Of a DNA stretch of 64,000 bases, positions 6,215 to 41,826 are shown in pieces. The number at the start of each line of letters is the position of its first letter. Position 1 is the stretch's first letter. Source of the stretch: an uncultured Gammaproteobacteria bacterium (GTDB taxonomy: Bacteria > Patescibacteriota > Microgenomatia > Daviesbacterales > UBA10151); NCBI GenBank assembly GCA_964387865.1, contig CAYLXC010000002.1, forward strand, positions 18,676-82,675. The letters run 5' to 3'. The position numbers and the translations under genes were made by a program. A model generated the notes under the pieces. That model was given only the letters and a program-made list of their open reading frames with translations. It searched no databases and had not been told where the DNA came from.

Positions 6215-6420
6215 TTTATTGGTTAGTTTTAGGGATATTAATCGTTGCAGCTGCTTCTTTTAAAAAGAGAGCATCATTCTATCTTTCTTTAGCTTTTTAT
6301 CTTTTTATGGCTGGAGCAATACTTAGAATTATCGGTATAAATGATATAGCAGAGCTAATAATGAGGATAAGCCTTATAGGATGGTTAGTTGGACTAGGTC
6401 TATCTTTTAAGCAGTTGTGA
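6202..6420 (+). CDS. Small polytopic membrane protein (72 aa); partner of the family-A gene
   Basis: ATG overlaps the stop of 4013..6214 (ATGGAAAGCATGA). There are 2-3 TM helices. 'DIAELIMRISLIGWLVG' is similar to 'DIGEFIMRLSFIFLLVG' in the small protein at 41331. Confidence 0.4.
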   Translation: MESMIYWLVLGILIVAAASFKKRASFYLSLAFYLFMAGAILRIIGINDIAELIMRISLIGWLVGLGLSFKQL

Positions 6421-8584: not shown

Positions 8585-9775
8585 ATGACAAGATTTAACT
8601 TTCATATTTTTGCCAATGCTGCATTAGGTAAAGGATTATCTGGTGGGGATAGGATTTTTATTGAATTTGCAAAAAGATTAAGTATTCACCAGAAGGTGAT
8701 AGTTTATGTATGGCAAGAAGGATATGAGATGTGTAGACGGCAGGGTTTATCTGAGTGTGTAAATTTTAAGATATTAAATGTTAATTTTTGGTGTAAATTT
8801 GGTTTTTTAATATGCTACATTGCCAGAATTTTTAAATCTATCTGGTTTGCTATTATAACCAAGATAGATAATAGTGAGAAAACTATTATCTATTCAGCAT
8901 CGGAATTTTGGATGGATTCACTCCCGGCATTTATTTTGAAGCTTAGATTTCCTCAGGTAAGGTGGGTAGCGGGTTGGTTCCAAACTGCCCCAAATCCTTT
9001 TACAGGTTTTACGGAGGGGGTAAGAGAAAGACAATATAGATTATCAGCATTTTTTTATTGGTTTGTGCAACTTCCTATAAAACCATTAATTAGAAGATGG
9101 GCAGATTTTGTTTTGGTTAATAATGAGCTAGAAAAAAAACAATTTAATAAACTTGATAAATTGGGTAGAGTATTGGTAATTCTTGGAGCTGTGAATATAG
9201 AAGATATTAGCCAATATCTTAGAAAGAACAAGGACTTGCCTAAAATTTATGATGTCGTTTTCCAGGGTAGATTTCACCCTCAAAAGGGTGTGATAGAGCT
9301 TATCGATATTTGGAAGTTTGTGACTAGTAGACTTCCGAATGCTAAACTTGCCATGATTGGAGATGGTCCTCTGATGGATCTAGTTAAGAAAAAGATAGAT
9401 GATCTTAGATTACAAAAGAATATAAAACTTTTCGGTTATGTTTTTGATGGGCCAAAAAAATACGGGATTTTTTCTGAAAGTAAGTTAGTAGTCCATCCAG
9501 CATTTTTTGATTCTGGAGGAATGGCTGCCCAAGAAGCGATGGCTTTTGGTCTGCCTTGTATTGGATTTGATTTAAGTTCCTATAAATCCTACTTTCCCAG
9601 CGGGATAGTTAAGGTTGCAGTTGGAGATTTGCAAGGATTTGCCAATATTATAGCTGAATTATTAGAAAATAAAAATAAAAGGGATAGGATTGGTAGGGAA
9701 GCTCAAAAAATGATTAATGAAAATTGGAGCTGGGATAAAAGAGTTGAACAGCTTACGACTATTTTAAAAACCTAG
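8585..9775 (+). CDS. GT4-family (GT-B) glycosyltransferase
   Basis: C-terminal 'ESKLVVHPAFFDSGGMAAQEAMAFGLPCIGFD' (E-x7-E-type motif) and 'FQGRFHPQKGVIELI'. The ORF track starts at a TTG at 8576; I prefer the ATG at 8585. Confidence 0.7.
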   Translation: MTRFNFHIFANAALGKGLSGGDRIFIEFAKRLSIHQKVIVYVWQEGYEMCRRQGLSECVNFKILNVNFWCKFGFLICYIARIFKSIWFAIITKIDNSEKTIIYSASEFWMDSLPAFILKLRFPQVRWVAGWFQTAPNPFTGFTEGVRERQYRLSAFFYWFVQLPIKPLIRRWADFVLVNNELEKKQFNKLDKLGRVLVILGAVNIEDISQYLRKNKDLPKIYDVVFQGRFHPQKGVIELIDIWKFVTSRLPNAKLAMIGDGPLMDLVKKKIDDLRLQKNIKLFGYVFDGPKKYGIFSESKLVVHPAFFDSGGMAAQEAMAFGLPCIGFDLSSYKSYFPSGIVKVAVGDLQGFANIIAELLENKNKRDRIGREAQKMINENWSWDKRVEQLTTILKT

Positions 9776-10715
9776 GGTTTTCTTTAAGATAAATTACGGT
9801 TTGTCGGATAGCTTCTCTAATTGTCAGTTTGGGTCTCCAGCCTAATCTCTTTAGTTTTTCGATAGATAAAAGTACAAATTCATTATCGCCCTTCCAATTA
9901 CTTTCTTTCCCAAGCCAAGTTTTTTTTACAGAAGTTTTACCCAAAACTTCAAGAATGCTATCAACAATCTGAGAAACTGTAAGTAAATCTTGATGCCCAA
10001 TATTGTATATACTGACTTGCTCTTTCGAGTTCGCAATTATTCTAAATATTGCATCAATCCCATCCAAAACAGCGAGAGAAGATTTCTTAGGTGAACCATC
10101 TGAAAAAAGCTTAATCGATTTTGGATTATGCTGCAATTTTTTTAAGACATCAAAAACTATTCCGTGAGTATAACGCGGACCCAAGAAAGAAACGAATCTA
10201 AAGATATAGGTTTTAATGTTATAGTAAGAAGAATAAGTATAAATGTAACTTTCACAAGCAGCTTTTGTTGCCCCATATAAAGAGGTTGGTTGAAATGGGT
10301 AATCTTCAGGAGTAGGATGGATTCTTGCATCTCCATAAACTGAAGAAGTAGAAGTAAACGCCAAATTTTTGACTCCGTAATTTATCATAGCTTCCAAAAC
10401 ATTACGTGTCATTTCCAAGTTTTGATCATGGTCGATAAAATGGTTTTCAAAGCCAGACTTAACATCAGCATGAGCAGCTAAATGAAAAACAGACTCTATA
10501 CCTTTCATAGATTCTTTGAGTTTTCGGATATTTGAGAGATCAGCTTTTACCAATTCAAAATTTCTATTTTTTAAATGTTGTCGGATAAAAATTTGCCTGC
10601 CGGTTGAAAAATTATCATATACTCTTACTTTATGTCCTTCACTCATTAACCTGTCAACAATATGGGAACCAATAAATCCGGCACCGCCTGTAATAAGATA
10701 TTTCATATCATACAA
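9759..10715 (-). CDS. NAD-dependent nucleotide-sugar epimerase/dehydratase (extended SDR)
   Basis: 'YLITGGAGFIGSHIVDRL' Rossmann motif and the catalytic 'YGATKAACE' (YxxxK). Confidence 0.75.
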   Translation of the reverse strand: MYDMKYLITGGAGFIGSHIVDRLMSEGHKVRVYDNFSTGRQIFIRQHLKNRNFELVKADLSNIRKLKESMKGIESVFHLAAHADVKSGFENHFIDHDQNLEMTRNVLEAMINYGVKNLAFTSTSSVYGDARIHPTPEDYPFQPTSLYGATKAACESYIYTYSSYYNIKTYIFRFVSFLGPRYTHGIVFDVLKKLQHNPKSIKLFSDGSPKKSSLAVLDGIDAIFRIIANSKEQVSIYNIGHQDLLTVSQIVDSILEVLGKTSVKKTWLGKESNWKGDNEFVLLSIEKLKRLGWRPKLTIREAIRQTVIYLKENPRFLK

Positions 10716-11685
10716 AATTTTTGTGGTAAAGTTTTTTAATTACACTCATAACATATAGAGCATCCTTTATACTACTATCGCTATAATCTTTTTGCTTAAT
10801 TCTTTTAAAGAAGAGGTTATTTTCAACTTTCCAGGAATTATCTTCTTCTCCAAATGAAAACTCACTAACATCAGGAGGACCCATTTCGGGTCTCATAGAA
10901 TATAAGACTAACCTTTCCTTACCATAGCTTCTGCCTAGCCCATCAATTTGAATCTTTCCCTTTTGCAACATAATTTCAAAAGAAAATATATTTTTCCATT
11001 CTACACAAGTTACTGAAAGATCAGCGATTTGATTTTTCTTATTTCGGAGTTGAAAAAAAGCAGCATCTTCCAAGTTTGTTTCCCAAAATAAGTTAGTCAC
11101 AAATCCTGTTATTTGAGACATTTGTCCACAAAAAAAGTTCACTAGATCAATTAAATGACAGCCCTGATCGATTAATTCCCCACCGCCTGACACTTTTTTT
11201 TGAAAACGCCATTCTTTTTCATAATTTAACCTACCACCGTGGCCATATCTAGCCCTGATAAATAAAAGGGGTCCCCAATTTTGGGAATCAACAATTTGTT
11301 TAGCCTTTTGTATTGCTGGATGAAATTTATGATTATATCCGTACATTACAACAACGGAGTTTCTCTTGTAGGCTTTATATGTATCTGATATTTGTCTAAA
11401 ATTTACCCCCCCGGGTTTCTCTATAAGAACATGTTTTCCGTTTTCAATTGCTGATATCGCTATTTTTGATAAATTATTATTTGTAACACAAACAAATATT
11501 GCATTGATATCCTTGTCCTTCACTACCTTATGCCAATCTTTTTCAAAGCCGCAGTTAAACTGGTGAGCAAATACTTCTCCTTTTTGCTCATCTATATCAC
11601 AAACAGTTGTTAAATTTACGCCTTTAGGTAAAGATTGTGCTCTTTTTCTTCCAACGTAACCTGCCCCTATTATTGCAATATTCAT
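10708..11685 (-). CDS. Gfo/Idh/MocA-family NAD(P)-dependent oxidoreductase (WbpB-like sugar dehydrogenase candidate)
   Basis: 'MNIAIIGAGYVGRKRAQSL' N-terminal Rossmann, 'EKPGG' motif. Sits with a nucleotide-sugar dehydrogenase and a DegT aminotransferase in the locus. Confidence 0.65.
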   Translation of the reverse strand: MNIAIIGAGYVGRKRAQSLPKGVNLTTVCDIDEQKGEVFAHQFNCGFEKDWHKVVKDKDINAIFVCVTNNNLSKIAISAIENGKHVLIEKPGGVNFRQISDTYKAYKRNSVVVMYGYNHKFHPAIQKAKQIVDSQNWGPLLFIRARYGHGGRLNYEKEWRFQKKVSGGGELIDQGCHLIDLVNFFCGQMSQITGFVTNLFWETNLEDAAFFQLRNKKNQIADLSVTCVEWKNIFSFEIMLQKGKIQIDGLGRSYGKERLVLYSMRPEMGPPDVSEFSFGEEDNSWKVENNLFFKRIKQKDYSDSSIKDALYVMSVIKKLYHKNFV

Positions 11686-12968
11686 TTTCCCTCTCCCATT
11701 CCGAGATAATTAAATCCAAAGTTTTTATATTTCTTTTTATCTAAAAAGTTTTTAGTATCTATAATAACTCTTTGTCTCATCAAATTTGAAACTAATTTGG
11801 GATTAATTTCTTTAAATTGAGGCCACTGTGTCATTAAAATTAATAAGTCTAATTTTTTTAAAAATTCCTCAATGGAACTTTTAATATTTACAAATTTTAG
11901 TCTTCCATTTTTTATAGCCGGATCAAAACCTCTAATTTCAGCTTTCTCTTTGGCTAATAAATTTGCTAATTCAAGAGATTGAGATCTTCTTAAGGTATTT
12001 GTATTAGGTTTGTAGGTTAAGCCTAGTATACCTATTTTTTTCCCATTAAGTTTGGGATAAATTTTTTTGACCTTCCTCATTAAATAATTTAGTCTATCTT
12101 GGTTGACCGCATAAATTGCATTAAGCAATTTAGCTGGATATTTAAATTTAGCGGAGAGTTTAATGAGAGTTTTAATATCACGACCCAAAGTTCCGCCGGC
12201 AAATCCTAATCCAGGATTAATAGGTGCTTTCGGACTTACCCTTGGATCGGACTTTAATCCTAAAACTACATCTTGTATATTTGCACCCAATAGTTCACAA
12301 AGATCAGAGAGTTCAGAGGCAAAACTTATATTTAGAGCTAAGTAAGAATTTAGAGCATGCTTTAACATTTCGGCACTCTCTATAGACATTTTCAAAACTT
12401 TACATTTAAAAATTGGAAAATCTTTTAGAAATTGCTCAATGATATCATTATTATCTGATCCTAGGACGATCCTTGGAGGTTTAAGAAAGTCATAAATTGC
12501 ACTTCCCAGTCTTAAGTTTTCAGGGAAATAAATTACCCTAGTGTTTGATTTTAATCTTTTTAAAAGAGAGCGGGTAGTTCCAATAGGGACTTGACTTGAA
12601 ATAACAATAATTGTTTTTTTTGAGATATATTTAACTACTAAATCAAATAATTTATTTAACAAACTTAAGTCAACTTCATCATAATCATTTATTGGCGTAT
12701 CTAAAGTAATAAAAATATAGTCTTTATTTTTGATTACTTCTTTTGGATTACTACTAAAATGCAAATTTTTGTTTAAATATTTTGTAAAATATCTGGTAAG
12801 ACTAGGTTCAAATATAGGAAGTTCTTTTGATTTTAGTTTGTTAACATTCTTTTTATCTAGGTCGAAGCAGGAAACTTTATATCCTGATTTAGCAAAGCAA
12901 ACACTATATACTAAACCCAGATGCCATAATCCTAAAACTCCGACAGATAACTTAAGACCCTTTTTCAT
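11682..12968 (-). CDS. Nucleotide-sugar dehydrogenase (UDP-glucose/GDP-mannose dehydrogenase family; UDP-GlcNAc/ManNAc dehydrogenase-like)
   Basis: N-terminal 'LSVGVLGLWHLGLVYSVCFAKSGYKVSCFD' NAD-binding region and the central 'GFAGGTLGRD' in the catalytic Cys region position. 428 aa. Confidence 0.65.
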   Translation of the reverse strand: MKKGLKLSVGVLGLWHLGLVYSVCFAKSGYKVSCFDLDKKNVNKLKSKELPIFEPSLTRYFTKYLNKNLHFSSNPKEVIKNKDYIFITLDTPINDYDEVDLSLLNKLFDLVVKYISKKTIIVISSQVPIGTTRSLLKRLKSNTRVIYFPENLRLGSAIYDFLKPPRIVLGSDNNDIIEQFLKDFPIFKCKVLKMSIESAEMLKHALNSYLALNISFASELSDLCELLGANIQDVVLGLKSDPRVSPKAPINPGLGFAGGTLGRDIKTLIKLSAKFKYPAKLLNAIYAVNQDRLNYLMRKVKKIYPKLNGKKIGILGLTYKPNTNTLRRSQSLELANLLAKEKAEIRGFDPAIKNGRLKFVNIKSSIEEFLKKLDLLILMTQWPQFKEINPKLVSNLMRQRVIIDTKNFLDKKKYKNFGFNYLGMGEGK

Positions 12969-13821
12969 AGATAAACTCTTGATCCACTCTTCTTAGTTTG
13001 TATAAATTATTACTAAGTTTATTCGTAGAAGAACTTTGTTCATTCTTTCTTAACTTTGCGGGTGGATTCCATTTGGCGCTTAGTAGCCTTCCAGTAATAT
13101 GGTTTGACTGAGTTGACGATAGATAGACTACTAGTTTTGCAGCAAGTTCAGGAGGCATTCCCCCTAACTTTTTTTGTTTAATGGCATTTTGATAAATTTC
13201 TTTACCGCTTTTTTTAGGTCCTTGTTTAATCAAATAATCGTTTAAATAAGTATTAACAGAACCAGGCGATATAGCGTTTACCTGAATATTTTTTTCTTTA
13301 AGCTCATCCGCTAAAACTTCACTGAATCCTGCAACAGCAAATTTAGAAGTAAAGTATGCGGAAAAGTTAGGCATTGTTTTGCTTCCTCCAACTCCAGCCC
13401 CACATAAATTAATAATTTTTCCCCCGCCCCCTTTTTCCATAAGCGGAATTACTAAATGTGATAAGTAGACAATACCCATGAAATTAATTTCAAAGGCCTT
13501 ATTCCAATTATTTAAACTTAAATTCTGAAAAGGTCCAATAGGACCATATATACCGGCATTGTTTACCAAAATATCTATTTTTTTTAACTTAATTTGTGCA
13601 AATTTTATTAATTTTTTGCAATCAGTAAATTTTGAGACATCACAAGATATTCCGTAAGCTACTACATTTTTCTTATTTAGAGCACTCAGTGCTTTTTGTA
13701 TTTCTGATTTAGTTCGCGAGCAAATTATAACAATTGCACCTTGATTAACCAGTTCTTTAGCAATTGCAAAACCGATCCCTCTAGCTCCGCCCGTGATCAA
13801 AGCAACTTTGTTAGATAACAT
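12952..13821 (-). CDS. Short-chain dehydrogenase/reductase (SDR) family oxidoreductase
   Basis: 'VALITGGARGIGFAIAKEL', 'NNAG' and 'YFTSKFAV' (YxxxK). Confidence 0.7.
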   Translation of the reverse strand: MLSNKVALITGGARGIGFAIAKELVNQGAIVIICSRTKSEIQKALSALNKKNVVAYGISCDVSKFTDCKKLIKFAQIKLKKIDILVNNAGIYGPIGPFQNLSLNNWNKAFEINFMGIVYLSHLVIPLMEKGGGGKIINLCGAGVGGSKTMPNFSAYFTSKFAVAGFSEVLADELKEKNIQVNAISPGSVNTYLNDYLIKQGPKKSGKEIYQNAIKQKKLGGMPPELAAKLVVYLSSTQSNHITGRLLSAKWNPPAKLRKNEQSSSTNKLSNNLYKLRRVDQEFIYEKGS

Positions 13822-13833
13822 AGAGAGATTATA

Positions 13834-14631
13834 TTACTTTTTCTGGAGTTTTTTCCAAGCTTGATCAAATTGTTCAATAGTTTCTATTGTTCGTTGACTA
13901 AAAAGCATAGAGTGTAAGATTTCTGGAGTTGTTGTAACAATATTAGCTCCAGCTGCGAACGCTTCTCCCACCATTGTCGCTGTACGTATACTTCCAACTA
14001 TTATTTTTGGATTTTCGTAGTCACCTTCTTTCAAAAACGATGAAATAGCAACTACTATATTTTTAGGATCATTATTAACGCTCGATTCCAGTCCTACTCT
14101 TTTGAAATCCGCCATATAGTCGAATCTACCCCTATACTTTACTTGATCCTCAAGGGAGCGTCCCCAAAAAAGGGAGATAAATGATGGTCTCTTACAATAT
14201 CTTGTGGCTAAAGCTGCCATAACCATTTGTTCAAAGGTCATCATAGTTGTGACATTTATAGCAATACCTAAATCTGAAAGTGCTTGGATAATTTCTAAAC
14301 TTTTGGTTGTGTCGGGGATTAGTGGCACTTTTACAACAATATTTTTGTCCATGCTATTTAATTTCCTACCTTCCTTAACCATCTCGTTTGTGGTTGCTGT
14401 ACTATCTGTAAGCTCTACTGAAACAGGTTTATCTTTCATCTCCTTGCAGATTTTTTTGATAACTATTTCTACGTCTTGTAAACGCAATCCATCCTGTAAC
14501 ATTATTACTTGATTTGTGGTTACACCGTCAATGATTCCAGTTGAATTCCATCTTTTTATTTCTTCTAAATTAGAGGAATCTATAAATAAGGATCGGTTAA
14601 AGGAGTAGATTTTTGGCATAACTTTAGACAT
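13834..14631 (-). CDS. Transaldolase/fructose-6-phosphate aldolase family protein
   Basis: N-terminal 'LFIDSSNLEEIKRW...GVTTNQVIM' matches the LFLDSA...GVTTNPSL signature. The Schiff-base region 'IVVKVPLIPDTTKSLEIIQALSDLGIAINVTTMMTFEQMVMAALA' is also present. Confidence 0.6.
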   Translation of the reverse strand: MSKVMPKIYSFNRSLFIDSSNLEEIKRWNSTGIIDGVTTNQVIMLQDGLRLQDVEIVIKKICKEMKDKPVSVELTDSTATTNEMVKEGRKLNSMDKNIVVKVPLIPDTTKSLEIIQALSDLGIAINVTTMMTFEQMVMAALATRYCKRPSFISLFWGRSLEDQVKYRGRFDYMADFKRVGLESSVNNDPKNIVVAISSFLKEGDYENPKIIVGSIRTATMVGEAFAAGANIVTTTPEILHSMLFSQRTIETIEQFDQAWKKLQKK

Positions 14632-14683
14632 AATTCTAGTTCATAAAACTGAATATATCAAGTGTAGGTGATATACTAATACA
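14632..14683. promoter_or_regulatory. Divergent promoter region (transaldolase operon on -, heptose genes on +)
   Basis: 52-nt AT-rich spacer containing -10-like 'GATATACT' and 'GAATATAT' between divergent genes. Confidence 0.25.
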
Positions 14684-15280
14684 ATGAAATGTGCAGTTTT
14701 TCTTGATCGGGACGGAGTTATAAATGAGTTAGTTTATGATTCACAACATGGAACAGTTGATAGTCCAATGTTTCCATCTCAAGTGAAATTAATGTATGGA
14801 ATTGATGAACTGATTAAAGACATAAATAAAACGGGATTTATCAGCATCATTTGTTCAAACCAACCAGCTGTGGCATTAGGAAAAACTACACTAAAAAATT
14901 TTAAGGCGGTAACTGAAGAAATTAAAACACAACTAAAGGCAAAGGGGGCAAGTATAGATTATGAATATCATTGTTTGCATCACCCATTTGCAAAGATTAA
15001 AAAATATAAAATTGTGTGCGAATGTAGAAAACCGAAGACAAGTCTTTTTCTGAAAGCCGCGTCTGAACACCATATTGATCTTAAGGATTCATGGATGATA
15101 GGTGATGGAGTAGATGACATAAAAGCTGGTAAAAAGGCAGGGTGTAAGACAATATTACTTGCTAATATTAATGCAACCGAGAATTTACGGATTATAGAAA
15201 ATCAGCTAGGATCTATAAATCCGGACTTTATAGTAAAAAATTTATTAGAAGCTTTAAAGATTATTAAGGAAAATTTATGA
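14684..15280 (+). CDS. gmhB: D-glycero-D-manno-heptose 1,7-bisphosphate phosphatase (HAD-IIIA, GmhB-like)
   Basis: 'FLDRDGVINE' HAD motif I, 'CECRKP' and 'MIGDGVDDIKAGKKAGCKTILL'. About 200 aa. Adjacent to the other heptose-pathway genes. Confidence 0.65.
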   Translation: MKCAVFLDRDGVINELVYDSQHGTVDSPMFPSQVKLMYGIDELIKDINKTGFISIICSNQPAVALGKTTLKNFKAVTEEIKTQLKAKGASIDYEYHCLHHPFAKIKKYKIVCECRKPKTSLFLKAASEHHIDLKDSWMIGDGVDDIKAGKKAGCKTILLANINATENLRIIENQLGSINPDFIVKNLLEALKIIKENL

Positions 15281-16035
15281 TAGCAATTATTGTTGCTGGT
15301 GGAAGAGGCGAAAGACTTGAACTTTTTACTAACAGGATTCCCAAACCTATGATAAAAGTTAGTGGAAAACCAATACTTTTACATGTTGTAGAACTACTTA
15401 AAAAATATGGTGTATCAGAATATATTTTTTCCTTATGTTACTTACCTAATGTAGTTAAAAATTATTTTGGGGATGGTAAAAAATTTGGAATAAAAATATC
15501 TTATACATTTGAAAAACCTAATTTACCGTTGGGTACTGCAGGAGCAATTTCGCTTGCAAGAAAATTAATTAACGATACCTTCATTGTGACTTATGCGGAT
15601 ATTTTAAGGGATTTGGATATAGGAAATATGATAAGTTTTCATAAGAAAAATAAATCATTTGCTACCTTAAATGTTTACAAAAGAGAAAGTAGGGATGCAA
15701 AAAGTAAAATAGTTTTAGACAATAAAAATCGGATCATTAAATTTATAGAAAGACCCAAATCAGATGATCTAAAAGAAGAATACATTTGGGTAAACGGATC
15801 ATTTTATATTTTGGAGCCGCAAATTTTTGATTGGATTCCAGATAATAAAAAATCTGATTTTGGAAAAGATATATTCCCAAAATTATTGAAATCAAAAAAA
15901 CCTCTTTATGCTTATCCTCCAAAAGGATATCTCGTTGATATAGGTAATATGGAAAAATTAGAGTATGCTAGAAAAACTTTCAGTAAGGTTCAATTTCCCG
16001 AAGTTCCGGGGAAAAAACTATTGCATGCCAAATAA
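15277..16035 (+). CDS. hddC: Sugar-1-phosphate nucleotidyltransferase (D-glycero-alpha-D-manno-heptose-1-phosphate guanylyltransferase HddC-like)
   Basis: 'MIAIIVAGGRGERLELFTNRIPKPMIKVSGKPIL' NTP-transferase motif. Start overlaps the gmhB stop (ATGA). Confidence 0.6.
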   Translation: MIAIIVAGGRGERLELFTNRIPKPMIKVSGKPILLHVVELLKKYGVSEYIFSLCYLPNVVKNYFGDGKKFGIKISYTFEKPNLPLGTAGAISLARKLINDTFIVTYADILRDLDIGNMISFHKKNKSFATLNVYKRESRDAKSKIVLDNKNRIIKFIERPKSDDLKEEYIWVNGSFYILEPQIFDWIPDNKKSDFGKDIFPKLLKSKKPLYAYPPKGYLVDIGNMEKLEYARKTFSKVQFPEVPGKKLLHAK

Positions 16036-16579
16036 GAACCTGAAAGCTTTCTGCAAAAGGAGTTATAAACTCATCTTTTACAACAGGCACCATGATACAC
16101 AGGTCAGCAACTTTTTTAGTATATCCCCCATCTCTGCTGACAATTCCAATTATGGAAGCTTTAATCTTTTTGGCATATTTTAATGCTTCCACTATATTAG
16201 GACTAATGTTCTTTTCCAAATTCCCACCACCGACTGATAGAATCATTAGTACATCTTTACTTGTGAGTTTGCTAACCTTTAACCAATTAATAAAAACTGT
16301 CTCCCATCCATCATCATTAGTTCTGGCTGTTAATTCTGATACATTATCAATTGGTGTGTAAGCTTCAATGTTGGCAATTTTTCTGAAATCATTAACAGCA
16401 TGAGAACTGTTAGCAGCACTGCCACCTACCCCTAGTAAAAACAATCTTCCTCTTCTTTGTCTAAGTTTAGTTAACAGGTTAATAGTTCTTTCAATATCCT
16501 TTTTGGAAATATTATTTATGGCAGTGATTGCTCCGTCTAAATAGTTTTGAATATATTCTGAAGTTTTCATATTTTTCAA
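15980..16579 (-). CDS. gmhA: Phosphoheptose (sedoheptulose-7-phosphate) isomerase, SIS domain
   Basis: 'RLFLLGVGGSAANSSHAVNDF' SIS signature. 199 aa. Confidence 0.7.
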   Translation of the reverse strand: MKNMKTSEYIQNYLDGAITAINNISKKDIERTINLLTKLRQRRGRLFLLGVGGSAANSSHAVNDFRKIANIEAYTPIDNVSELTARTNDDGWETVFINWLKVSKLTSKDVLMILSVGGGNLEKNISPNIVEALKYAKKIKASIIGIVSRDGGYTKKVADLCIMVPVVKDEFITPFAESFQVLIWHAIVFSPELREIEPY

Positions 16580-17628
16580 CTTAAATTAATCAATACCTTT
16601 GTTCCTTCCCAATCAAATTTAACTTTGCGTTCCTCAAGACCTATTTTTTGCATTCTATCACGGAAACTATTTTTGTTTTTATTAACATAGAATACGAACC
16701 AACCTCCTCCGCCTGCTCCCATAATTTTTCCGCCCAAGGCACCGGCTCTAAGGGCCTGATTATACCACTCATCAATCTGGGGATTAGATACTAGAGTGGA
16801 TAATTTTTTCTTCATTAGCCAGTGCGTATGCAAAGACGCTCCAAAATCATCGACCTTCCCCTTTAACAAAAATTTTTTAACGTCTTGGCCCAAAGTTTTA
16901 ATCTCATCTAAATTTCTAATTATCTCTTCGGTTTGTTTTGATTTTTTTCCTATTTTCTTTTTTTGATCAGATAAAACAGTTACCGCATCGCGTTGAATTC
17001 TGGTTCTAAAAAATAATAAATTACTTTCTAACTCTGCAATAGTATTAAAGCTTAAGTTTAAAGATTCTACATGAACCCTGCCTCTTGTATCAATTTCAAA
17101 ATAGTTGATTCCACCTAAAGCTGCTATATACTGATCCTGTGGTCCAACTGGCATTTTAAGTTTTCTTATCTCTATCTCTGCAGCCTCTTTGGCTAGATAT
17201 AATTTATCTACTGGTTGATTTCTGTATGTATAAAGGGCATTAAGCAGTCCTACTTCAAGTGCTCCTGAGCCACCTAAACCTGATTTAGCAGATGCATCAG
17301 CTAAAGTTGTGATTTCTATACCTTTGGTAACTTTGGTTAACTTTAAGCACTCTTTAATAATTGGATTTGGAATTTCCCTAAAATCATAGGTCATAGTTGC
17401 CTCAATGCCATGAGAAGCTTTAATGAGATTCCGGTCCTCTGTTTTGTTCAAAAAAATAAACACATATTTACCAATTGCTGCACTAATCCAAGCCCCTCCC
17501 TTTAGTTTGCTATACCATACTACATCTGTCCCTCCGCCACCTAAAGTTATTCTCATTGGTGTTTGAGTAATAATGAGAGCTCTCTCGCGAGATAGACTTT
17601 GATCTTTAGTTTTTAAAATTCTACGCAT
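16576..17628 (-). CDS. hddA: GHMP-family sugar kinase (D-glycero-alpha-D-manno-heptose 7-phosphate kinase HddA-like)
   Basis: GHMP motif 'SAKSGLGGSGALEVGLLNAL'. 350 aa. Start/stop overlap with gmhA (4 nt). Confidence 0.6.
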   Translation of the reverse strand: MRRILKTKDQSLSRERALIITQTPMRITLGGGGTDVVWYSKLKGGAWISAAIGKYVFIFLNKTEDRNLIKASHGIEATMTYDFREIPNPIIKECLKLTKVTKGIEITTLADASAKSGLGGSGALEVGLLNALYTYRNQPVDKLYLAKEAAEIEIRKLKMPVGPQDQYIAALGGINYFEIDTRGRVHVESLNLSFNTIAELESNLLFFRTRIQRDAVTVLSDQKKKIGKKSKQTEEIIRNLDEIKTLGQDVKKFLLKGKVDDFGASLHTHWLMKKKLSTLVSNPQIDEWYNQALRAGALGGKIMGAGGGGWFVFYVNKNKNSFRDRMQKIGLEERKVKFDWEGTKVLINLS

Positions 17629-17721
17629 TATTTACATTTGCTGTTAGTAACAGTTATTATATGTGTCAAGTGCTCAAATGCAAGGATTATATCTTTGATT
17701 TTAAGTAATGCAATAATCATT

Positions 17722-18444
17722 ATGAAAAAATATTACCTCTCGATAATCATCCCAGCGTATAATGAGGAAAAGAAAATAGAGAGAGACATACGAGAAGCTT
17801 TTAATTATTTTAAAAAAAAGAAAATTTCTGGGGAGGTTATAGTTTCAACAGATGGGATAACTGATGATACTAACAAAATAGTCCTCAATCTTGAGAATGA
17901 ATTCCCCGACCTGATTTTGCTGACTAAGAAAAAAAAGATTGGTAAAGGCACTGCAATTAAAAGTGGAGTGTCTAAAGCAAGAGGAAAATATATCATGTTT
18001 GCAGATGCAGGGTATTGTGTACCATTTAGATTAATTGATGCAGGAATTAAAAAGATAGAGGAAGGTTATGATCTGGCATTAGGAAATAGGGCTGATAAAT
18101 CTGCAGTTATAAAGTATGGGCAACCACTTTACAGAAGGATCGGGTCGAAAGTTTTTGGTTTAATTGTTAAATATGTGCTAGGGGTTCCTTCTCATATTAA
18201 AGATACCCAATGTGGATTTAAAATTTATAAGCACGATATGGCAAAAAAATTGTTTAAAGATTTGGAATCATCCACTATGATGTTTGATCTGGAACATATT
18301 TTAAGGGCAAAAAAATATGGATATAAAATAGCTGTTTTTCCTGTTGAATGGAATAATGATCCTGATACTAAATTCAATCCAATAAGTGGTGGAATAAAAT
18401 CCCTTAAAGAAATTTATAACATTAAATTTAGACTTAAACTTTAA
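17722..18444 (+). CDS. GT2 polyprenyl-phosphate glycosyltransferase (DPM1/GtrB/CsbB-like)
   Basis: 'LSIIIPAYNEEKKI', 'VIVSTDGITDDT', 'DTQCGFKIYKHD'. About 240 aa from the ATG at 17722. The ORF track begins upstream at 17638. Confidence 0.7.
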   Translation: MKKYYLSIIIPAYNEEKKIERDIREAFNYFKKKKISGEVIVSTDGITDDTNKIVLNLENEFPDLILLTKKKKIGKGTAIKSGVSKARGKYIMFADAGYCVPFRLIDAGIKKIEEGYDLALGNRADKSAVIKYGQPLYRRIGSKVFGLIVKYVLGVPSHIKDTQCGFKIYKHDMAKKLFKDLESSTMMFDLEHILRAKKYGYKIAVFPVEWNNDPDTKFNPISGGIKSLKEIYNIKFRLKL

Positions 18445-18451
18445 AAATTAA

Positions 18452-19207
18452 ATGGAAACATACTTTTATGATTTAAGGTATCAGGTTGATAAATATGAGT
18501 GGAGAGCCAGAGCCAAAAGAGATTTAGTTTTTCAACTCTTTGGAAAATATCGAAATCAGGATTTAAGAAATGAAACGACTAGGATTTTAGACTTCGGCTG
18601 TGGTACTGGAGTTCTTCTAGAAGAATTTGAAAAAAAATTTAATGTAGAAGGATTCGGAATAGATAACTCCAAAAAAGCAATTGATTACTGTAAGAAAAGA
18701 GGATTTGGCCGAGTTAAGATATCTGATGGGGTAAAAATTCCTTTTAAAGCTGGATATTTTGATTTAGTTACAGCTATAGATGTACTGGAGCATATAGAAA
18801 ACGATTTGGAAGCATTAGGTCAAATTAAAAGAGTTTTAAAAAAGTTAGGCTTGGCAATCTTTTTAGTTCCTGCTCATCCTAAACTTTGGTCAACAAGAGA
18901 CATTAATTTACAACACTTTAGAAGATATAAAATTGGAGAATTGGAAAGTAAATGCAAAAAATTAGGATTTAAGTTATTAGAGAATAAAAATGCTGATTTT
19001 GCGCTCTACTTTTTGTTCGCTCTAATTTGCTTACTGGCTCCTAAAAAAAATGGAATACCAAATCTAAAAATGGATACTGCCACTGCTTCTACTAATAAAT
19101 TTATTAATGAAATAATCTTTATGTACGAACAATTGGAAAATAAATTACAGCAATTTACTACCTTCCCAATAGGATTATCGATTGTAGTGGTTGTACAAAA
19201 AATTTGA
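18452..19207 (+). CDS. Class I SAM-dependent methyltransferase (type 11)
   Basis: 'ILDFGCGTGVLLEEF', 'FDLVTAIDVLEHIEND'. Confidence 0.7.
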   Translation: METYFYDLRYQVDKYEWRARAKRDLVFQLFGKYRNQDLRNETTRILDFGCGTGVLLEEFEKKFNVEGFGIDNSKKAIDYCKKRGFGRVKISDGVKIPFKAGYFDLVTAIDVLEHIENDLEALGQIKRVLKKLGLAIFLVPAHPKLWSTRDINLQHFRRYKIGELESKCKKLGFKLLENKNADFALYFLFALICLLAPKKNGIPNLKMDTATASTNKFINEIIFMYEQLENKLQQFTTFPIGLSIVVVVQKI

Positions 19208-19232
19208 TACTGTTACAATCTTCTTTGAGAAT

Positions 19233-20411
19233 ATGGCAAGTAAGAAAAAATTTATTCCCGGAAAAACAAGAGTTTTGTATGGTGGAGTTGCTTTTGGAAA
19301 AGAAGAACGGAGAGCAATTGATGAAATTTTAGATAAGAATTGGTGGGGATTATCCGAACAGGGAAAACTATTTGAAAAGGAGTTAGCAGAAACACAGGGA
19401 GTAAAAAGAGCAATCCTTGCAAATTCAGGATCTTCTGCATTAGACCTTGGCATTAGAGCGCTACAGCTCCCTAAAGGAAGTGAAGTAATTGTTCCTGCCT
19501 GTACATTCCCGACTCCAATAGCATCTTTAATAAATTATGGTCTTAAACCAGTGGTTGCTGATATAGAAATTGGTAATTATTTCTTTAGCCCAAAATCTTT
19601 AGAAAGGTCAATAAGCAAAAAGACCGCTGCAATTCTACTTGTTTATGTTGCCGGATTAGTGGGTGATTTAGACAAAATATTAAATATTGCAAAGAAAAAT
19701 AAATTAAAAGTAATTGAAGATAATTGTGATGGATTTGGTGGAATATGGAAAGGTAGAATGCTTGGAAGTTTTGGTGAGTTTTCTACAATCTCCACGCATG
19801 CAGCACATATAATCTCAACAGGTGAAGGTGGGGTAGTCTTAACCAATGATGATGAATTGGCAGATAGAGTTATATCTATAAGGGATTGGGGAAGAATTTT
19901 AGATTTTGAGGATAGGAAAAAGGAACTAGGAGATTTTCCTGCAGATTATAGGAGATACATATATTCGGAATTAGGATCAAACCTTAAACCGTTAGAACTA
20001 CAAGCTGCAATGGGTAGAGTACAACTGAGAAGATTACAAGAATTTAAAAAGAAAAGAAAAAGGAATGCTGAAGTTTTAAGAAAAATACTTTCTGAATATA
20101 AAGATAGAGTTATTTTGCCATCCCATCATCCTAATGCAGATGTCTGTTGGTATACTTTCCCGGTTACATTAAGAAGGGGCTCCAGAAAAAAAGTTTTGGA
20201 GGCTTTAGACAAAGCAAACATCGAATGGAGGCCAATTTTGGCAGGAAACATTGCTCGTCAACCAGCTTTTGTTAATCATATAATAGTTCGAGATAAATTA
20301 AATAATTCAGATCAATTATTGAACCAAAGTTTTTGGGTATCTGTGCATCCTACACATTCAATCGAGGTTATGGAATTTGTAGCAAACACAATAAAAAAAG
20401 CTCTTGATTAA
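19233..20411 (+). CDS. DegT/DnrJ/EryC1/StrS-family PLP-dependent sugar aminotransferase
   Basis: 'FGKEERRAIDEILDKNWW...QGKLFEKELAETQGVKRAILANSGSSALDLGIRAL' and 'VFSTISTHAAHIISTGEGG', with a probable PLP-binding Lys nearby. Confidence 0.8.
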   Translation: MASKKKFIPGKTRVLYGGVAFGKEERRAIDEILDKNWWGLSEQGKLFEKELAETQGVKRAILANSGSSALDLGIRALQLPKGSEVIVPACTFPTPIASLINYGLKPVVADIEIGNYFFSPKSLERSISKKTAAILLVYVAGLVGDLDKILNIAKKNKLKVIEDNCDGFGGIWKGRMLGSFGEFSTISTHAAHIISTGEGGVVLTNDDELADRVISIRDWGRILDFEDRKKELGDFPADYRRYIYSELGSNLKPLELQAAMGRVQLRRLQEFKKKRKRNAEVLRKILSEYKDRVILPSHHPNADVCWYTFPVTLRRGSRKKVLEALDKANIEWRPILAGNIARQPAFVNHIIVRDKLNNSDQLLNQSFWVSVHPTHSIEVMEFVANTIKKALD

Positions 20412-20417
20412 ATTAAT

Positions 20418-21344
20418 ATGTCTGCCAAAAACATTCACACACTTCTGATTACCGGTTCAACTGGTTTGGTTGGATCAAGATTTGTTGAACTTTTTAAAAA
20501 CAATTTTTCAATCGTTACTATCGGAAGAAGTAATGTAGATAATCAGATAGATTTAACTTCCAAAGAAGAAGTATTCAGAACTATTCAATCATCTGATGCT
20601 GATGCTGTAATCAATTTTGCAGCTTACACTAATGTAGATGAAGCGGAAAAAGAAAAAGGAGATACAAAAGGAGAGGTATACACCATAAATACACTACTGC
20701 CATTTTGGCTTGCAAAAAGTTGCCAAACTTCCGGAAAGAAACTTTATCATATCTCGACCGATTATGTTTTTGATGGAAAACAAACGAATAGGTCCTACAC
20801 AGAAGAAGATATTCCTAAACCGGTTGACTGTTGGTATTCAATAACAAAATATGAAGGAGAAATTGGCGTTGCTAACGGTTTTAAAAAACAGGAAAATTTT
20901 TCAATTATTCGGATATCCTATCCATACAGCGGTGTTTATAAGAGAAAATTAGATGTTGCCAGAGCTATTATAGAAAGGTTGGTTAGGAAAGAGTCCTATT
21001 TTGGTATAACAGATCAGAAAGTAAAACCAACTAGTGTGGATGATATTGCAAATGCTTTAAATCTGCTGCTAAAAAAGAGGGTCTATGGTATATTTCATAT
21101 TGCAGGTAATTTTTCTCCAAATGAATACATTACTCCTTATGACTTTGCACTCAAAATTGCTGAAACTTTCGAATTGGATTCTTCGTTAATTAAGCCTATA
21201 ACCTTTTTAGAATTTTCAAAAGAAAGGATTACACCAAGGCCTCAACATACATGGCTTGATACTACAAAAATAGAATCGCTTGGTTTTAGTATTACTAATA
21301 CTAATCAAGCTCTAAATAGATTAAGACAACAATTTAACCACTAG
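20418..21344 (+). CDS. RmlD-like NAD(P)-dependent reductase/epimerase (dTDP-4-dehydrorhamnose reductase family SDR)
   Basis: 'LLITGSTGLVGSRFVEL' and 'YSITKYEGE' (YxxxK). About 300 aa. Paralog of 35274..36167. Confidence 0.6.
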   Translation: MSAKNIHTLLITGSTGLVGSRFVELFKNNFSIVTIGRSNVDNQIDLTSKEEVFRTIQSSDADAVINFAAYTNVDEAEKEKGDTKGEVYTINTLLPFWLAKSCQTSGKKLYHISTDYVFDGKQTNRSYTEEDIPKPVDCWYSITKYEGEIGVANGFKKQENFSIIRISYPYSGVYKRKLDVARAIIERLVRKESYFGITDQKVKPTSVDDIANALNLLLKKRVYGIFHIAGNFSPNEYITPYDFALKIAETFELDSSLIKPITFLEFSKERITPRPQHTWLDTTKIESLGFSITNTNQALNRLRQQFNH

Positions 21345-41655: not shown

Positions 41656-41826
41656 ATGAAAAGTAAATACTTATTTTCGGTATTTCTATTAGGTCTTCTC
41701 ATAAGTTTTGTCTCGCTAATTTTAGATCATCCAGGTTTTGCTTTGCGGATTGTTATTTACAATTACTTCATATTGAGTTTAGCGGTAGTAGTGTATATAT
41801 GGGAGATAAAGAAAAATGAAAAATAA
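41656..41826 (+). CDS. Very small membrane protein (56 aa, 2 TM), below the ORF-track length cutoff
   Basis: ATG at 41656 reads MKSKYLFSVFLLGLLISFVSLILDHPGFALRIVIYNYFILSLAVVVYIWEIKKNEK and stops at 41824..41826. It overlaps the start of 41816..44455 by 11 nt. Confidence 0.3.
   Translation: MKSKYLFSVFLLGLLISFVSLILDHPGFALRIVIYNYFILSLAVVVYIWEIKKNEK

Follow-up and report, generated by a model that had tools for sequence, protein, structure and literature searches.

Genes of the locus

The window (the whole 64-kb stretch of DNA analysed) is an island with several sugar pathways. Within it, the five open reading frames reported in the preliminary description, from a transaldolase-family gene (TAL) to a GHMP kinase gene, were found again at the same coordinates and in the same superfamilies by ORF and profile matches (Table 1). 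None of the five reached its equivalog model, and the scores fell short by a wide margin (bits against cut-off, given below). The divergent TAL and phosphatase genes are separated by 52 bp, and the nucleotidyltransferase gene shares its first 4 bp with the end of the phosphatase gene. Most TAL homologs start at Met5 of the window's protein, and 14619 may therefore be the true TAL start. The five genes are real, but a unit starting at 13834 is too short, because TAL opens a minus-strand run, TAL-SDR-UGDH-like-GFO-EPI (9759-14631), whose co-conservation had been overlooked. Neighbouring genes in this run overlap by 4-17 bp or are spaced by a 12-bp gap.

Table 1. Genes of the module, read from the sequence; coordinates are positions within the 64-kb window
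Gene	Family	Position	Strand	Length	Evidence
TAL	transaldolase-family	13834..14631	-	265 aa	PF00923 TAL_FSA, E 8.5e-31, 108 bits
GmhB-type phosphatase	HAD-IIIA	14684..15280	+	198 aa	TIGR00213 119 bits
Nucleotidyltransferase	NTP_transferase	15277..16035	+	252 aa	PF00483 122 bits
Sugar-phosphate isomerase (SIS)	SIS_2	15980..16579	-	199 aa	GmhA HMM 54 bits
GHMP kinase	HddA/WcbL subfamily	16576..17628	-	350 aa	profile and PDB matches
SDR	classical short-chain dehydrogenase/reductase	12952..13821	-		adh_short 193 bits
UGDH-like	UDP-glucose/GDP-mannose-dehydrogenase family, without catalytic Cys	11682..12968	-		three UGDH domains
GFO	Gfo/Idh/MocA NAD(P) oxidoreductase	10708..11685	-		profile matches
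EPI	extended-SDR NDP-sugar epimerase/dehydratase	9759..10715	-		Epimerase 162 bits
GT2 (associated, not core)	polyprenyl-phosphate glycosyltransferase-like	17638..18444	+		Glycos_transf_2

Conservation of the module

Genes for TAL and for SIS, GHMP, HAD and NTP-transferase proteins occur together in ~60 related loci, usually accompanied by SDR, a Cys-less UGDH-like protein, a Gfo/Idh/MocA oxidoreductase and an epimerase. Since the same gene set recurs in ~60 independent loci, the co-localisation is far beyond chance, and the earlier remark that TAL beside heptose-type genes is notable was justified. In the 21 relatives whose upstream sequence covered 3.5 kb or more, SIS was present in 21, GHMP and NTP in 20 each and HAD in 17, and in the 17 loci with enough downstream sequence EPI was present in all, SDR adjoined TAL in 15 and GFO was found in 13. 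This linkage was kept at TAL identities of 46%, 43%, 42%, 37% and 32% with the gene order shuffled, and no loss of TAL from the module was seen among the ~60 loci. These observations show the gene content, synteny and co-occurrence of the module, to which the catalytic motifs described below are added.

The module extends beyond CPR to a Lawsonia plasmid, Rhizobium jaguaris and Polynucleobacter, and SDR was found in all three of these modules. In 72,556 plasmids, the module SIS subfamily and the module TAL occurred in the same five records and in no others. The proteobacterial TAL is a different subtype that passes the transaldolase equivalog (340 versus 282 bits) and shares at least 87% identity among the best 120 matches, Alpha- and Betaproteobacteria included. 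In R. jaguaris and Polynucleobacter the pentose-phosphate pathway is presumably complete and a separate GmhA present, and we assume that Rhizobium and Polynucleobacter already produce sedoheptulose-7-P. Such identity in hosts already provided with this compound indicates that TAL is kept under strong constraint.

TAL is an obligatory, deeply conserved member of the module in candidate-phyla bacteria and Proteobacteria, and no chance neighbour. The clusters of R. ruizarguesonis, hygromycin B and Streptomyces NBC_00868, which are of heptose type, contained neither TAL nor the UGDH-like and GFO genes, and the special SIS subfamily was absent from the hygromycin B and R. ruizarguesonis clusters. 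The proposal that TAL provides sedoheptulose-7-P, above all where the genome is reduced, is not borne out by these distributions: the TAL module is also present in the non-reduced R. jaguaris and Polynucleobacter, and no module locus has lost TAL, yet it is absent from characterised and heptose-type clusters.

Features of the transaldolase

TAL scored 111 bits against the FSA/TalC equivalog (cut-off 246), and its closest solved structures are 1vpx and TacTal. The aligned residues D18, N40, E73, K101, T128, F155, R158, S214 and R216 are all kept, with K101 at the Schiff base position and F155 being TAL-type and not the Tyr of FSA. The AF2 model (pLDDT 82.5) matched small transaldolases in Foldseek with TM ~0.8. 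The small (TalC/'Staph-type') housekeeping transaldolases (T. maritima 1vpx, T. acidophilum TacTal) have the same fold, catalytic and phosphate-binding residues and TAL-type Phe. However, the CPR TAL lies far under the equivalog cut-offs, has a Trp in its 'SLFWGR' motif followed, after the phosphate-binding Arg, by a conserved insertion of ~40 residues (long subtype), and occurs only within the module and not in pentose-phosphate operons. The family is compact: of the 50%-identity representatives, no more than 14 reached E ≤ 1e-30. The proteobacterial TAL has no such insertion, which is thus not a universal specificity determinant. No sequence feature of TAL proves a preference for ribose-5-P.

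Isomerase, kinase, phosphatase and nucleotidyltransferase

SIS scored 54 bits against the GmhA equivalog (cut-off 209), and its top PDB match was GmhA 1tk9 (48 bits). Compared with 1tk9, it has a 6-residue insertion, the Ser/Thr are gone from the 'STSG' phosphate loop ('SVGGGNLEKNISPN'), and an Asp is aligned with the catalytic Glu. The module SIS proteins of Lawsonia, Rhizobium and Polynucleobacter were 53-61% identical to that of the window, those of TAL-less clusters 27-30%; the GmhA model gave 43-60 bits for module SIS versus 95-109 bits for that of TAL-less relatives. Judged by sequence, SIS is a distinct, highly conserved subfamily, remote from GmhA and weakly GmhA-like. This and the remodelled phosphate loop suggest that its substrate differs from that of GmhA, without indicating which substrate it is.

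The kinase scored 174 bits against the HddA equivalog (cut-off 600), is 38-42% identical to the proteobacterial module kinases, and matched 3k85 (148 bits), 4usk WcbL (143 bits) and 4n3o (135 bits) in the PDB. These matches place it clearly in the heptose-kinase (HddA/WcbL) subfamily. Galactokinase and mevalonate kinase scored at most 40 bits, which removes the objection, foreseen in the preliminary description, that the enzyme might be closer to them. The phosphatase reached 119 bits with GmhB TIGR00213 (cut-off 150), passed the histidinol-phosphatase-domain and HAD-IIIA models, and carries 'FLDRDGVIN' and the GmhB-typical zinc loop 'C-L-H-H...C-E-C-R-K-P'. The nucleotidyltransferase scored 98 bits against the HddC equivalog (cut-off 300) and 134 bits with its top NCBIfam match, mannose-1-P guanylyltransferase; in the PDB, 8x7s UGPase gave 138 bits, GMPP ~109 and solved HddC 66. 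By these scores it resembles ManC-type enzymes more closely than HddC, and because GMPP and UGPase exceed HddC, 'GDP' is not established.

The GDP-D-glycero-alpha-D-manno-heptose pathway of GmhA/HddA/GmhB/HddC (Aneurinibacillus thermoaerophilus, Campylobacter jejuni, Yersinia, Burkholderia WcbL), to which these genes had been assigned, uses the same four families in the same reaction order. A route from ketose-P through aldose-P and 1-phosphate to an NDP-sugar is indeed encoded, and the kinase and phosphatase clearly fall within heptose-pathway subfamilies. However, the equivalog cut-offs are missed, and GDP-D-glycero-alpha-D-manno-heptose itself is doubtful because the SIS subfamily is distinct and the nucleotidyltransferase is not nearest to HddC. 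The hygromycin B cluster (Streptomyces sp. SAT1 plasmid), an example of the NDP-heptose cassettes in secondary metabolism, likewise groups SIS, HAD, GHMP-type kinase and nucleotidyltransferase, but it has no TAL, a more GmhA-like SIS (108 bits), a GalT-type nucleotidyltransferase and a kinase 31% identical to that of the window.

It is conceivable, but rather unlikely, that the four genes make GDP- or NDP-D-glycero-D-manno-heptose and that TAL, carried as a self-contained supply gene of a mobile glycan cassette, only raises or secures the level of sedoheptulose-7-P. Among characterised proteins, the kinase, phosphatase and isomerase match heptose enzymes best, every canonical transaldolase residue is kept, the proteobacterial TAL passes the transaldolase equivalog, and supply genes are often duplicated in glycan clusters. 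In addition, distant TAL relatives adjoin an AroB-like DHQ-synthase-family enzyme; AroB-like sugar-phosphate cyclases use sedoheptulose-7-P, the product of ordinary transaldolases, so this would be a precedent for TAL beside a consumer of that compound. However, TAL is kept in all ~60 module loci, Rhizobium and Polynucleobacter included, and is missing from the three heptose-type clusters; we know of no published GDP-heptose (GmhA/HddA/GmhB/HddC) cluster with a transaldolase or with the Cys-less UGDH/GFO pair. The presence of the separate SIS subfamily tracks TAL, and the four-enzyme redox/epimerase set exceeds the needs of known heptose tailoring. Another TAL is absent from some Microgenomates, but transketolase already gives sedoheptulose-7-P even in such a TAL-less genome (PMC7143001).

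Redox, epimerase and glycosyltransferase genes

In the UGDH-like protein, 'GFAGGTLGRD' aligns with 'GYGGSCFPKD' of 4a7p, and this Cys-to-Thr change is common to all module copies, Lawsonia and Rhizobium included, whereas the window's other UGDH-family gene retains the Cys. Lack of the uronic-acid-forming Cys is in keeping with an enzyme that oxidises a secondary alcohol of the exocyclic chain; such alcohols occur only in sugars of at least seven carbons. GFO is 40-41% identical to the proteobacterial module copies. EPI shares 45-46% identity with the copies in Rhizobium and Polynucleobacter and matched 8rdg (275 bits) and 3ehe (262 bits). The top NCBIfam matches of GT2 were dolichyl-P hexose transferase, ArnC and AglJ, and its ortholog (272-399 bits) adjoins the kinase in 8 related loci; it is a candidate loader of the sugar onto a lipid carrier.

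UGDH and Gfo/Idh/MocA proteins, with or without DegT, are a common set for UDP-2,3-diacetamido-uronic acids, and in an island of several sugar pathways UGDH-like, GFO and SDR might form a WbpA/WbpB-like UDP-sugar pathway merely adjoining a heptose cassette. We regard this as highly improbable, since the Cys is missing in every UGDH-like copy, the three genes have been conserved together with TAL in different phyla and are lacking in clusters without TAL, and no WbpD-type acetyltransferase is linked. Moreover, the linked DegT-family protein belongs to the ColD/E1-type dehydrases rather than to the LmbS-like aminotransferases, and it is not conserved across related loci.

Proposed pathway

The lincomycin/celesticetin (lmb/ccb) pathway is the only characterised one with a transaldolase, isomerase, kinase, phosphatase, nucleotidyltransferase, dehydrogenase, NAD(P) oxidoreductase and epimerase. 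LmbR forms octulose 8-P from ribose-5-P, and the route of LmbR/N/P/K/O (with L/M/Z) leads to GDP-octose for lincomycin (PMC4351081 Table 2; PMC5854111; PMC12945683 Table 1). The enzymes are LmbR transaldolase, LmbN isomerase, LmbP kinase, LmbK phosphatase and LmbO guanylyltransferase, followed by LmbL dehydrogenase, LmbZ/CcbZ NAD(P) oxidoreductase and LmbM epimerase (PMC4351081 Table 2; PMC12945683 Table 1). These eight functional classes, matched by described function, are common to both systems and co-encoded, with the transaldolase integral to the cluster and the redox/epimerase set alongside. The Lmb enzymes probably also have heptose-pathway enzymes as their best characterised relatives. 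In contrast to this actinomycete antibiotic cluster, the module lies in surface-glycan islands of CPR and Proteobacteria, lacks a conserved aminotransferase of the LmbS type, and includes an extra classical SDR.

By this analogy, the region may be the core of a conserved 8-9-gene module for a nucleotide-activated higher-carbon sugar of surface glycans, most likely an NDP-octose; this is our favoured reading, whose chances we judge to be about even. We know of no report of an aldo-octose in bacterial surface glycans. Points that count against an octose are the heptose-pathway enzymes as best characterised matches of kinase, phosphatase and isomerase, the more GmhA-like SIS (88 bits) of one TAL-linked variant, L054, and the dehydrase-type, not LmbS-like, DegT.

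The following steps are inferred, from the acceptor and the number of carbons to the nucleotide and every tailoring reaction. TAL would catalyze the committed first step, building a ketose phosphate by transfer of the dihydroxyacetone unit of fructose-6-P or sedoheptulose-7-P to ribose-5-P to give octulose 8-phosphate. The special SIS, proposed as a ketose-P to aldose-P isomerase (LmbN-like role), would convert this to the aldose 8-phosphate. The kinase, a candidate GHMP anomeric sugar kinase (LmbP-like), would phosphorylate C1, and the phosphatase, a candidate GmhB-type sugar bisphosphate phosphatase (LmbK-like), would take off the distal phosphate. The candidate sugar-1-phosphate nucleotidyltransferase (LmbO/HddC-like) would then give the NDP-sugar, whose exocyclic chain or ring would be remodelled by C6 oxidation, possibly 6,8-dehydration and reduction, and epimerisation. 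For this tailoring we propose the UGDH-like protein as an LmbL-like 2-electron dehydrogenase that oxidises the secondary alcohol of the exocyclic chain and SDR as a ketoreductase, with GFO and EPI as candidates for LmbZ/CcbZ-like and LmbM-like roles.

TAL might instead make another committed ketose phosphate, different from both sedoheptulose-7-P and the Lmb octulose, to be activated by the module; examples are nonulose 9-P from hexose-6-P, octulose from arabinose-5-P and a stereoisomeric heptulose. The same co-occurrence evidence would apply, transaldolases accept several aldose phosphates (PMC5854111), and the distinct SIS subfamily with its remodelled loop only says that the substrate is not that of GmhA. 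We consider this improbable because such a pathway is without precedent, ribose-5-P is the sole acceptor for which a homologous route has been characterised (PMC5854111, PMC4351081), and ribose-phosphate metabolism is central in CPR genomes (PMC5113843).

In the octose reading, the adjoining GT2 and the many polytopic transferases of the island would bring the sugar into a surface glycan, and the earlier view that the NDP-sugar route serves the surrounding glycan island holds. If this reading is true, the TAL module would build an unusual 8-carbon sugar and not merely feed an ordinary heptose pathway.

Relation of the five core genes to heptose enzymes

All five core open reading frames, which the preliminary description had read as a GDP-heptose pathway beside a transaldolase, were found with exactly the boundaries proposed there (table). 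When the products were compared with NCBIfam, heptose-pathway models ranked first for the kinase, the phosphatase and the isomerase, and the equivalog cut-offs of the heptose pathway were all missed by a wide margin. The kinase scored 174 bits against the HddA equivalog NF049969 (cut-off 600). Among solved structures, it gave 135-148 bits with 3k85, WcbL (4usk) and the C. jejuni enzyme (4n3o), versus 40 bits or less with galacto- and mevalonate kinases. By these structural matches, the protein is clearly of the heptose type among GHMP kinases, and a closer kinship with galacto- or mevalonate kinases, which the preliminary description had named as evidence against its reading, did not emerge; in view of the equivalog score, it is a candidate HddA. 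The phosphatase contains the DxDG and Cys/His zinc loop motifs and passed the HAD-IIIA and histidinol-phosphatase-domain models; its scores with the GmhB models were 119 bits for TIGR00213 (cut-off 150) and 84 bits for NF050049 (cut-off 250).

Two of the assignments were not borne out. The SIS-domain isomerase (SIS), taken for GmhA, scored 54 bits against TIGR00441 (cut-off 209) and matched solved GmhA weakly, at 48 bits and with a six-residue insertion. Its phosphate loop reads SVGGGNLEKNIS in place of the 'STSG' of GmhA, so that the Ser/Thr residues are lost, and an Asp aligns with the catalytic Glu of GmhA, while the His is kept; the missed score, the replaced loop and the Asp argue against GmhA. 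The nucleotidyltransferase, taken for HddC, gave 98 bits with NF049965 (cut-off 300), less than with mannose-1-phosphate guanylyltransferase (134 bits) or glucose-1-phosphate cytidylyltransferase in NCBIfam, and among solved proteins GMPP and UGPase (109-138 bits) were nearer than HddC (66 bits). GDP is a plausible nucleotide on this evidence. The nucleotidyltransferase and SIS genes are convergent, with 56 bp shared at the 3′ ends (window 15980-16035) versus approximately 11 bp in relatives, indicating a short C-terminal extension of the nucleotidyltransferase in the window.

Features of the window discussed in the text, with positions and assignments
Feature	Position	Strand	Assignment or remark
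Transaldolase	13834-14631	-	Pfam TAL_FSA
Phosphatase	14684-15280	+	Pfam HAD/Hydrolase_like
Nucleotidyltransferase	15277-16035	+	Pfam NTP_transferase
Isomerase	15980-16579	-	Pfam SIS_2
Kinase	16576-17628	-	Pfam GHMP kinase N+C
DegT-family protein	19191-20411	+	E1/ColD-type PMP-dependent 3-dehydrase
RmlD-like reductase	20418-21344	+	Follows the DegT-family gene
Second UGDH-family protein	29727-31088	+	Catalytic Cys kept
Epimerase/dehydratase	31085-32089		3′ of the second UGDH-family gene
Sugar C-methyltransferase	32055-33356		Methyltransf_14/13; after that epimerase/dehydratase
Large ORFs, first five	4013-6214, 6400-7968, 22131-24002, 24027-25892, 25897-27744
Large ORFs, other five	27778-29709, 33340-35247, 37850-41338, 41816-44455, 44468-47893

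The transaldolase and its linkage to the module

All the small-transaldolase residues of the transaldolase (TAL) align with the enzymes of T. maritima (1vpx) and T. acidophilum (TacTal). These include the catalytic Schiff-base Lys101, Asp18, Glu73 and Thr128, the phosphate ligands Arg158, Ser214 and Arg216, and Phe155 (TAL-type, not the Tyr of FSA) at the TAL/FSA switch, and they are invariant or nearly so among 26 homologs. The fold was confirmed by an AlphaFold model (pLDDT 82.5), which superposes on the small decameric transaldolases. Unlike those, TAL of candidate-phyla (CPR) bacteria carries a conserved insertion of approximately 40 residues after 'SLFWGR', in which Y166, R167, R169 and D171 are well conserved and the confidence of the AF2 model is low. 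The insertion was rejected as a universal specificity determinant because the TAL of the proteobacterial modules lacks it and because of that low confidence.

The family is compact, with 14 of 1.84 billion 50%-identity cluster representatives at E ≤ 1e-30, and has thousands of members (5,258 homologs), the named ones being MAGs of Gottesmanbacteria, Woesebacteria, Roizmanbacteria and 'Patescibacteria group'. A search of genome contigs with the single protein matched solely an unrelated 218-aa Spirochaetia TAL. The most distant TALs with 'SLFWGR' (39-41% identity; loci L048, 10001-15310, L049 and L050) have a short insertion and lie outside the module, beside an unknown 365-aa protein, an asparagine-synthase-like amidotransferase, a shikimate-dehydrogenase-like protein and an AroB-like enzyme of the DHQ-synthase family (230 bits, below the cut-off of 305). 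These genes form an undescribed cluster, which may cyclise a ketose phosphate made by TAL.

For 43 related loci, ORFs in all six frames were searched with the proteins of the window. Where at least 3.5 kb was available upstream of TAL (n = 21), SIS was found in all 21, the GHMP kinase and the nucleotidyltransferase (NTP) in 20 each and the HAD phosphatase in 17. With at least 4.5 kb downstream (n = 17), an epimerase (EPI) was always present, accompanied by a classical short-chain dehydrogenase/reductase (SDR) in 15, a Gfo/Idh/MocA oxidoreductase (GFO) in 13 and a UDP-glucose-dehydrogenase-family (UGDH) protein in 11. Altogether, TAL is co-encoded with isomerase, kinase, phosphatase and nucleotidyltransferase in approximately 60 loci of CPR and Proteobacteria, and the linkage persists at TAL identities of 46%, 43%, 42%, 37% and 32% with rearranged gene order, for example HAD-NTP-SIS-GHMP-SDR-UGDH-GFO-EPI-TAL in locus L051 and SIS-TAL-HAD-GHMP-NTP in locus L054. 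In the window, TAL heads a dense series of minus-strand genes, TAL-SDR-UGDH-like-GFO-EPI (from 14631 to 9759), in which neighbours overlap by 4-17 bp or are separated by a 12-bp gap. A promoter and terminator scan gave 44 versus 38.7 ± 6.3 in the shuffled background, and thus nothing above it in this AT-rich DNA.

At 12929-14500 of L054, the most divergent TAL-linked variant (32% identity), a gene for a B12-binding radical-SAM enzyme lies directly 3′ of the nucleotidyltransferase gene, pointing to C-methylation, or radical modification of another kind, of the sugar made by that lineage.

Clusters without transaldolase

Controls were three clusters with a related kinase and no TAL, those of R. 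ruizarguesonis pRL10, of hygromycin B (beside APH(7'')-Ia) and of Streptomyces NBC_00868; none of them has the UGDH-like or the GFO gene. Their SIS proteins scored 95-109 bits on TIGR00441, versus 43-60 bits for those of TAL-linked modules, and are 27-30% identical to SIS of the window. No other protein of the module is as conserved as SIS, for which the window and the proteobacterial modules share 53-61% identity. In a set of 72,556 plasmids, five records contained the special SIS subfamily, and the same five, and no others, contained the module TAL. Matches on Streptomyces plasmids were the hygromycin B cluster, a second TAL-less cluster and an unrelated TAL locus. That this subfamily always accompanies TAL proved mostly true and was rejected as a strict rule, the SIS of L054 being more GmhA-like (88 bits).

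The module outside CPR

A tblastn search of plasmids with the kinase led to a Lawsonia intracellularis plasmid and a Rhizobium jaguaris replicon. The former encodes SIS, HAD-IIIA, transaldolase, nucleotide-sugar dehydrogenase, SDR, Gfo/Idh/MocA, GHMP kinase and nucleotidyltransferase. The order is EPI-UGDH-like-SDR-GFO-GHMP-NTP-SIS-HAD-TAL in R. jaguaris (L056) and EPI-SDR-GFO-GHMP-NTP-SIS-HAD-TAL on the Polynucleobacter paneuropaeus chromosome (L057). Proteobacterial module TAL (238 aa in R. jaguaris) is a distinct short subtype without the insertion, 26-28% identical to the CPR protein, and it passed the NCBI transaldolase equivalog (340 bits, cut-off 282). Its best 120 of more than 8,000 matches are at least 87% identical and include named members from Rhizobium, Aurantimonas and Polynucleobacter; such identity across Alpha- and Betaproteobacteria indicates recent horizontal spread of the module. 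Although the subtype thus differs between CPR and proteobacterial modules, both keep a TAL. In Rhizobium and in Polynucleobacter, the pentose-phosphate pathway is complete and a separate GmhA serves LPS heptose; R. jaguaris CCGE525 and Polynucleobacter also keep a housekeeping TAL.

The Polynucleobacter module adjoins a UbiA-family prenyltransferase and a DUF212 protein. A flippase-like 'lysylphosphatidylglycerol synthase transmembrane domain' protein is encoded beside the TAL module of Lawsonia and likewise beside the R. ruizarguesonis cluster without TAL (loci L045 and L055), the latter with an adjacent GT2 as well. This companion hints at delivery of the sugar on a lipid carrier, or to lipid.

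The module dehydrogenase

The UGDH-like protein of the module has Thr for the catalytic Cys and Arg for Lys, reading 'GGTL[GA]RD' ('GGTLGRD' in the window) versus 'GGSCFPKD', and both replacements occur in all the copies examined, including those of Lawsonia and Rhizobium. As the Cys of the GGxCxxKD motif is the nucleophile for the four-electron oxidation to uronic acid, its loss excludes uronic acid formation, and the protein would most simply be a two-electron dehydrogenase. A second UGDH-family gene of the window keeps the Cys ('GPCLLKD'); with the epimerase/dehydratase and C-methyltransferase genes that follow, it suggests a separate pathway to a branched or methylated sugar.

Comparison with the lincosamide octose route

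In lincosamide biosynthesis, octulose 8-phosphate arises through LmbR from ribose-5-phosphate and a C3 donor. Four further enzymes, LmbN, P, K and O, carry it on to GDP-octose, which is tailored by LmbM, LmbL and CcbZ (with CcbS) (PMC4351081 Table 2; PMC5854111; PMC12945683). The set thus comprises a transaldolase, GmhA-like isomerase, HddA-like kinase, GmhB-like phosphatase, nucleotidyltransferase, dehydrogenase, NAD(P) oxidoreductase and epimerase (PMC4351081; PMC5854111; PMC12945683). In the literature searched, this is the sole characterised pathway that combines the enzymes of the module, and searches there found neither the gene combination outside lincosamide producers nor any account of CPR heptose clusters; the NDP-octose reading is therefore favored. 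The likeness is one of enzyme classes and genomic logic. In the module, proteins of the dehydrogenase, NAD(P) oxidoreductase and epimerase classes are conserved together and would act on its sugar. For this comparison, LmbL and LmbZ are taken to be of the UGDH and Gfo/Idh/MocA families, and the 6,8-dehydration chemistry is reportedly that of Wang et al. 2020. No Lmb-named chains were found among PDB structures of these families. Seemingly high-GC members of the TAL family were considered as a source of Lmb and rejected, being module fragments from metagenomes.

By analogy, an NDP-octose, or else a related sugar of higher carbon number, may well be what the module makes for the glycan island around it, a reading to which we give about even weight; its substrate, the carbon number, the nucleotide and all of the tailoring steps are what we infer. 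The preliminary description was right that TAL beside heptose-type genes is notable, as the linkage in approximately 60 loci confirms, and had proposed that TAL could supply sedoheptulose-7-phosphate to a GDP-heptose pathway. We consider this supply unlikely. It leaves unexplained that TAL is never lost, that even Proteobacteria whose pentose-phosphate pathway is complete have kept it and that the isomerase subfamily tracks it, and it gives no reason why transketolase would not suffice (PMC7143001). Another committed ketose phosphate, C9 or an isomeric C7/C8 compound, appears more improbable still.

Extending the octose reading, we tentatively propose, with somewhat less than even confidence, a widespread and horizontally mobile primary-metabolism pathway, spread over thousands of Microgenomates/CPR genomes and also present in Proteobacteria, among them Rhizobium jaguaris, Polynucleobacter and Lawsonia. 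A dedicated TAL would form octulose 8-phosphate, from which a nucleotide-activated, tailored aldo-octose would be made for surface glycans. It would be the first C8 aldose pathway outside the lincosamide antibiotics, whose sugar genes would probably have evolved from it.

The surrounding glycan island

Over its full 64 kb, the window is a glycan island, which has numerous transferases of the GT2, GT4 and GT-C-like kinds and also encodes a flippase, methyltransferases and other enzymes of sugar modification. Ten large ORFs (522-1162 aa) have no Pfam match or a weak AftD-like GT-C match and contain 8-13 hydrophobic 19-residue segments each, an unusual density of uncharacterised polytopic membrane proteins; presumably, they are GT-C-type transferases or polymerases. 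The sole DegT-family protein near the module, which is not conserved with it, was considered as the counterpart of the C6 aminotransferase LmbS/CcbS and rejected as a His-type dehydrase matching E1 and ColD. His stands at the position of the PLP Lys (STHAAHIISTGEGG), E1 (3bcx, 239 bits) is the best match among PDB entries, and the Cys-rich Fe-S insertion of E1 is absent. A 3-deoxy or 3,6-dideoxy sugar is probably a further product of the island.

The GC content of the window is approximately 32%, and, given the MAGs that contain the named TAL homologs, the window almost certainly derives from a CPR bacterium of the Microgenomates group. Cumulative GC skew climbs almost monotonically over 1-64000, and the plus strand holds most genes after 22 kb, a pattern similar to the strong strand asymmetry of a complete Microgenomates genome (PMC7143001).

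Implications

The module occurs in culturable or workable organisms, namely Rhizobium jaguaris CCGE525, Polynucleobacter paneuropaeus and the pig pathogen Lawsonia intracellularis, and the question is therefore open to experiment without CPR culture. It defines two unstudied subfamilies with clear signature motifs, the Cys-less UGDH-like dehydrogenase with 'GGTLxRD' and the non-GmhA SIS isomerase with 'GVGGSAxNxSHAVNDFRK' and 'SVGGGNxEKNIS'. Thousands of CPR 'transaldolase' genes appear to be glycan-cassette genes and not pentose-phosphate enzymes, which bears on metabolic reconstructions in which the completeness of the pentose-phosphate pathway is scored; TAL is altogether absent from at least one complete Microgenomates genome (PMC7143001). 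Should the product be an octose or a different higher-carbon aldose, bacterial surface glycans would gain a new monosaccharide class, and the lincosamide sugar logic would have been borrowed from a common envelope pathway.
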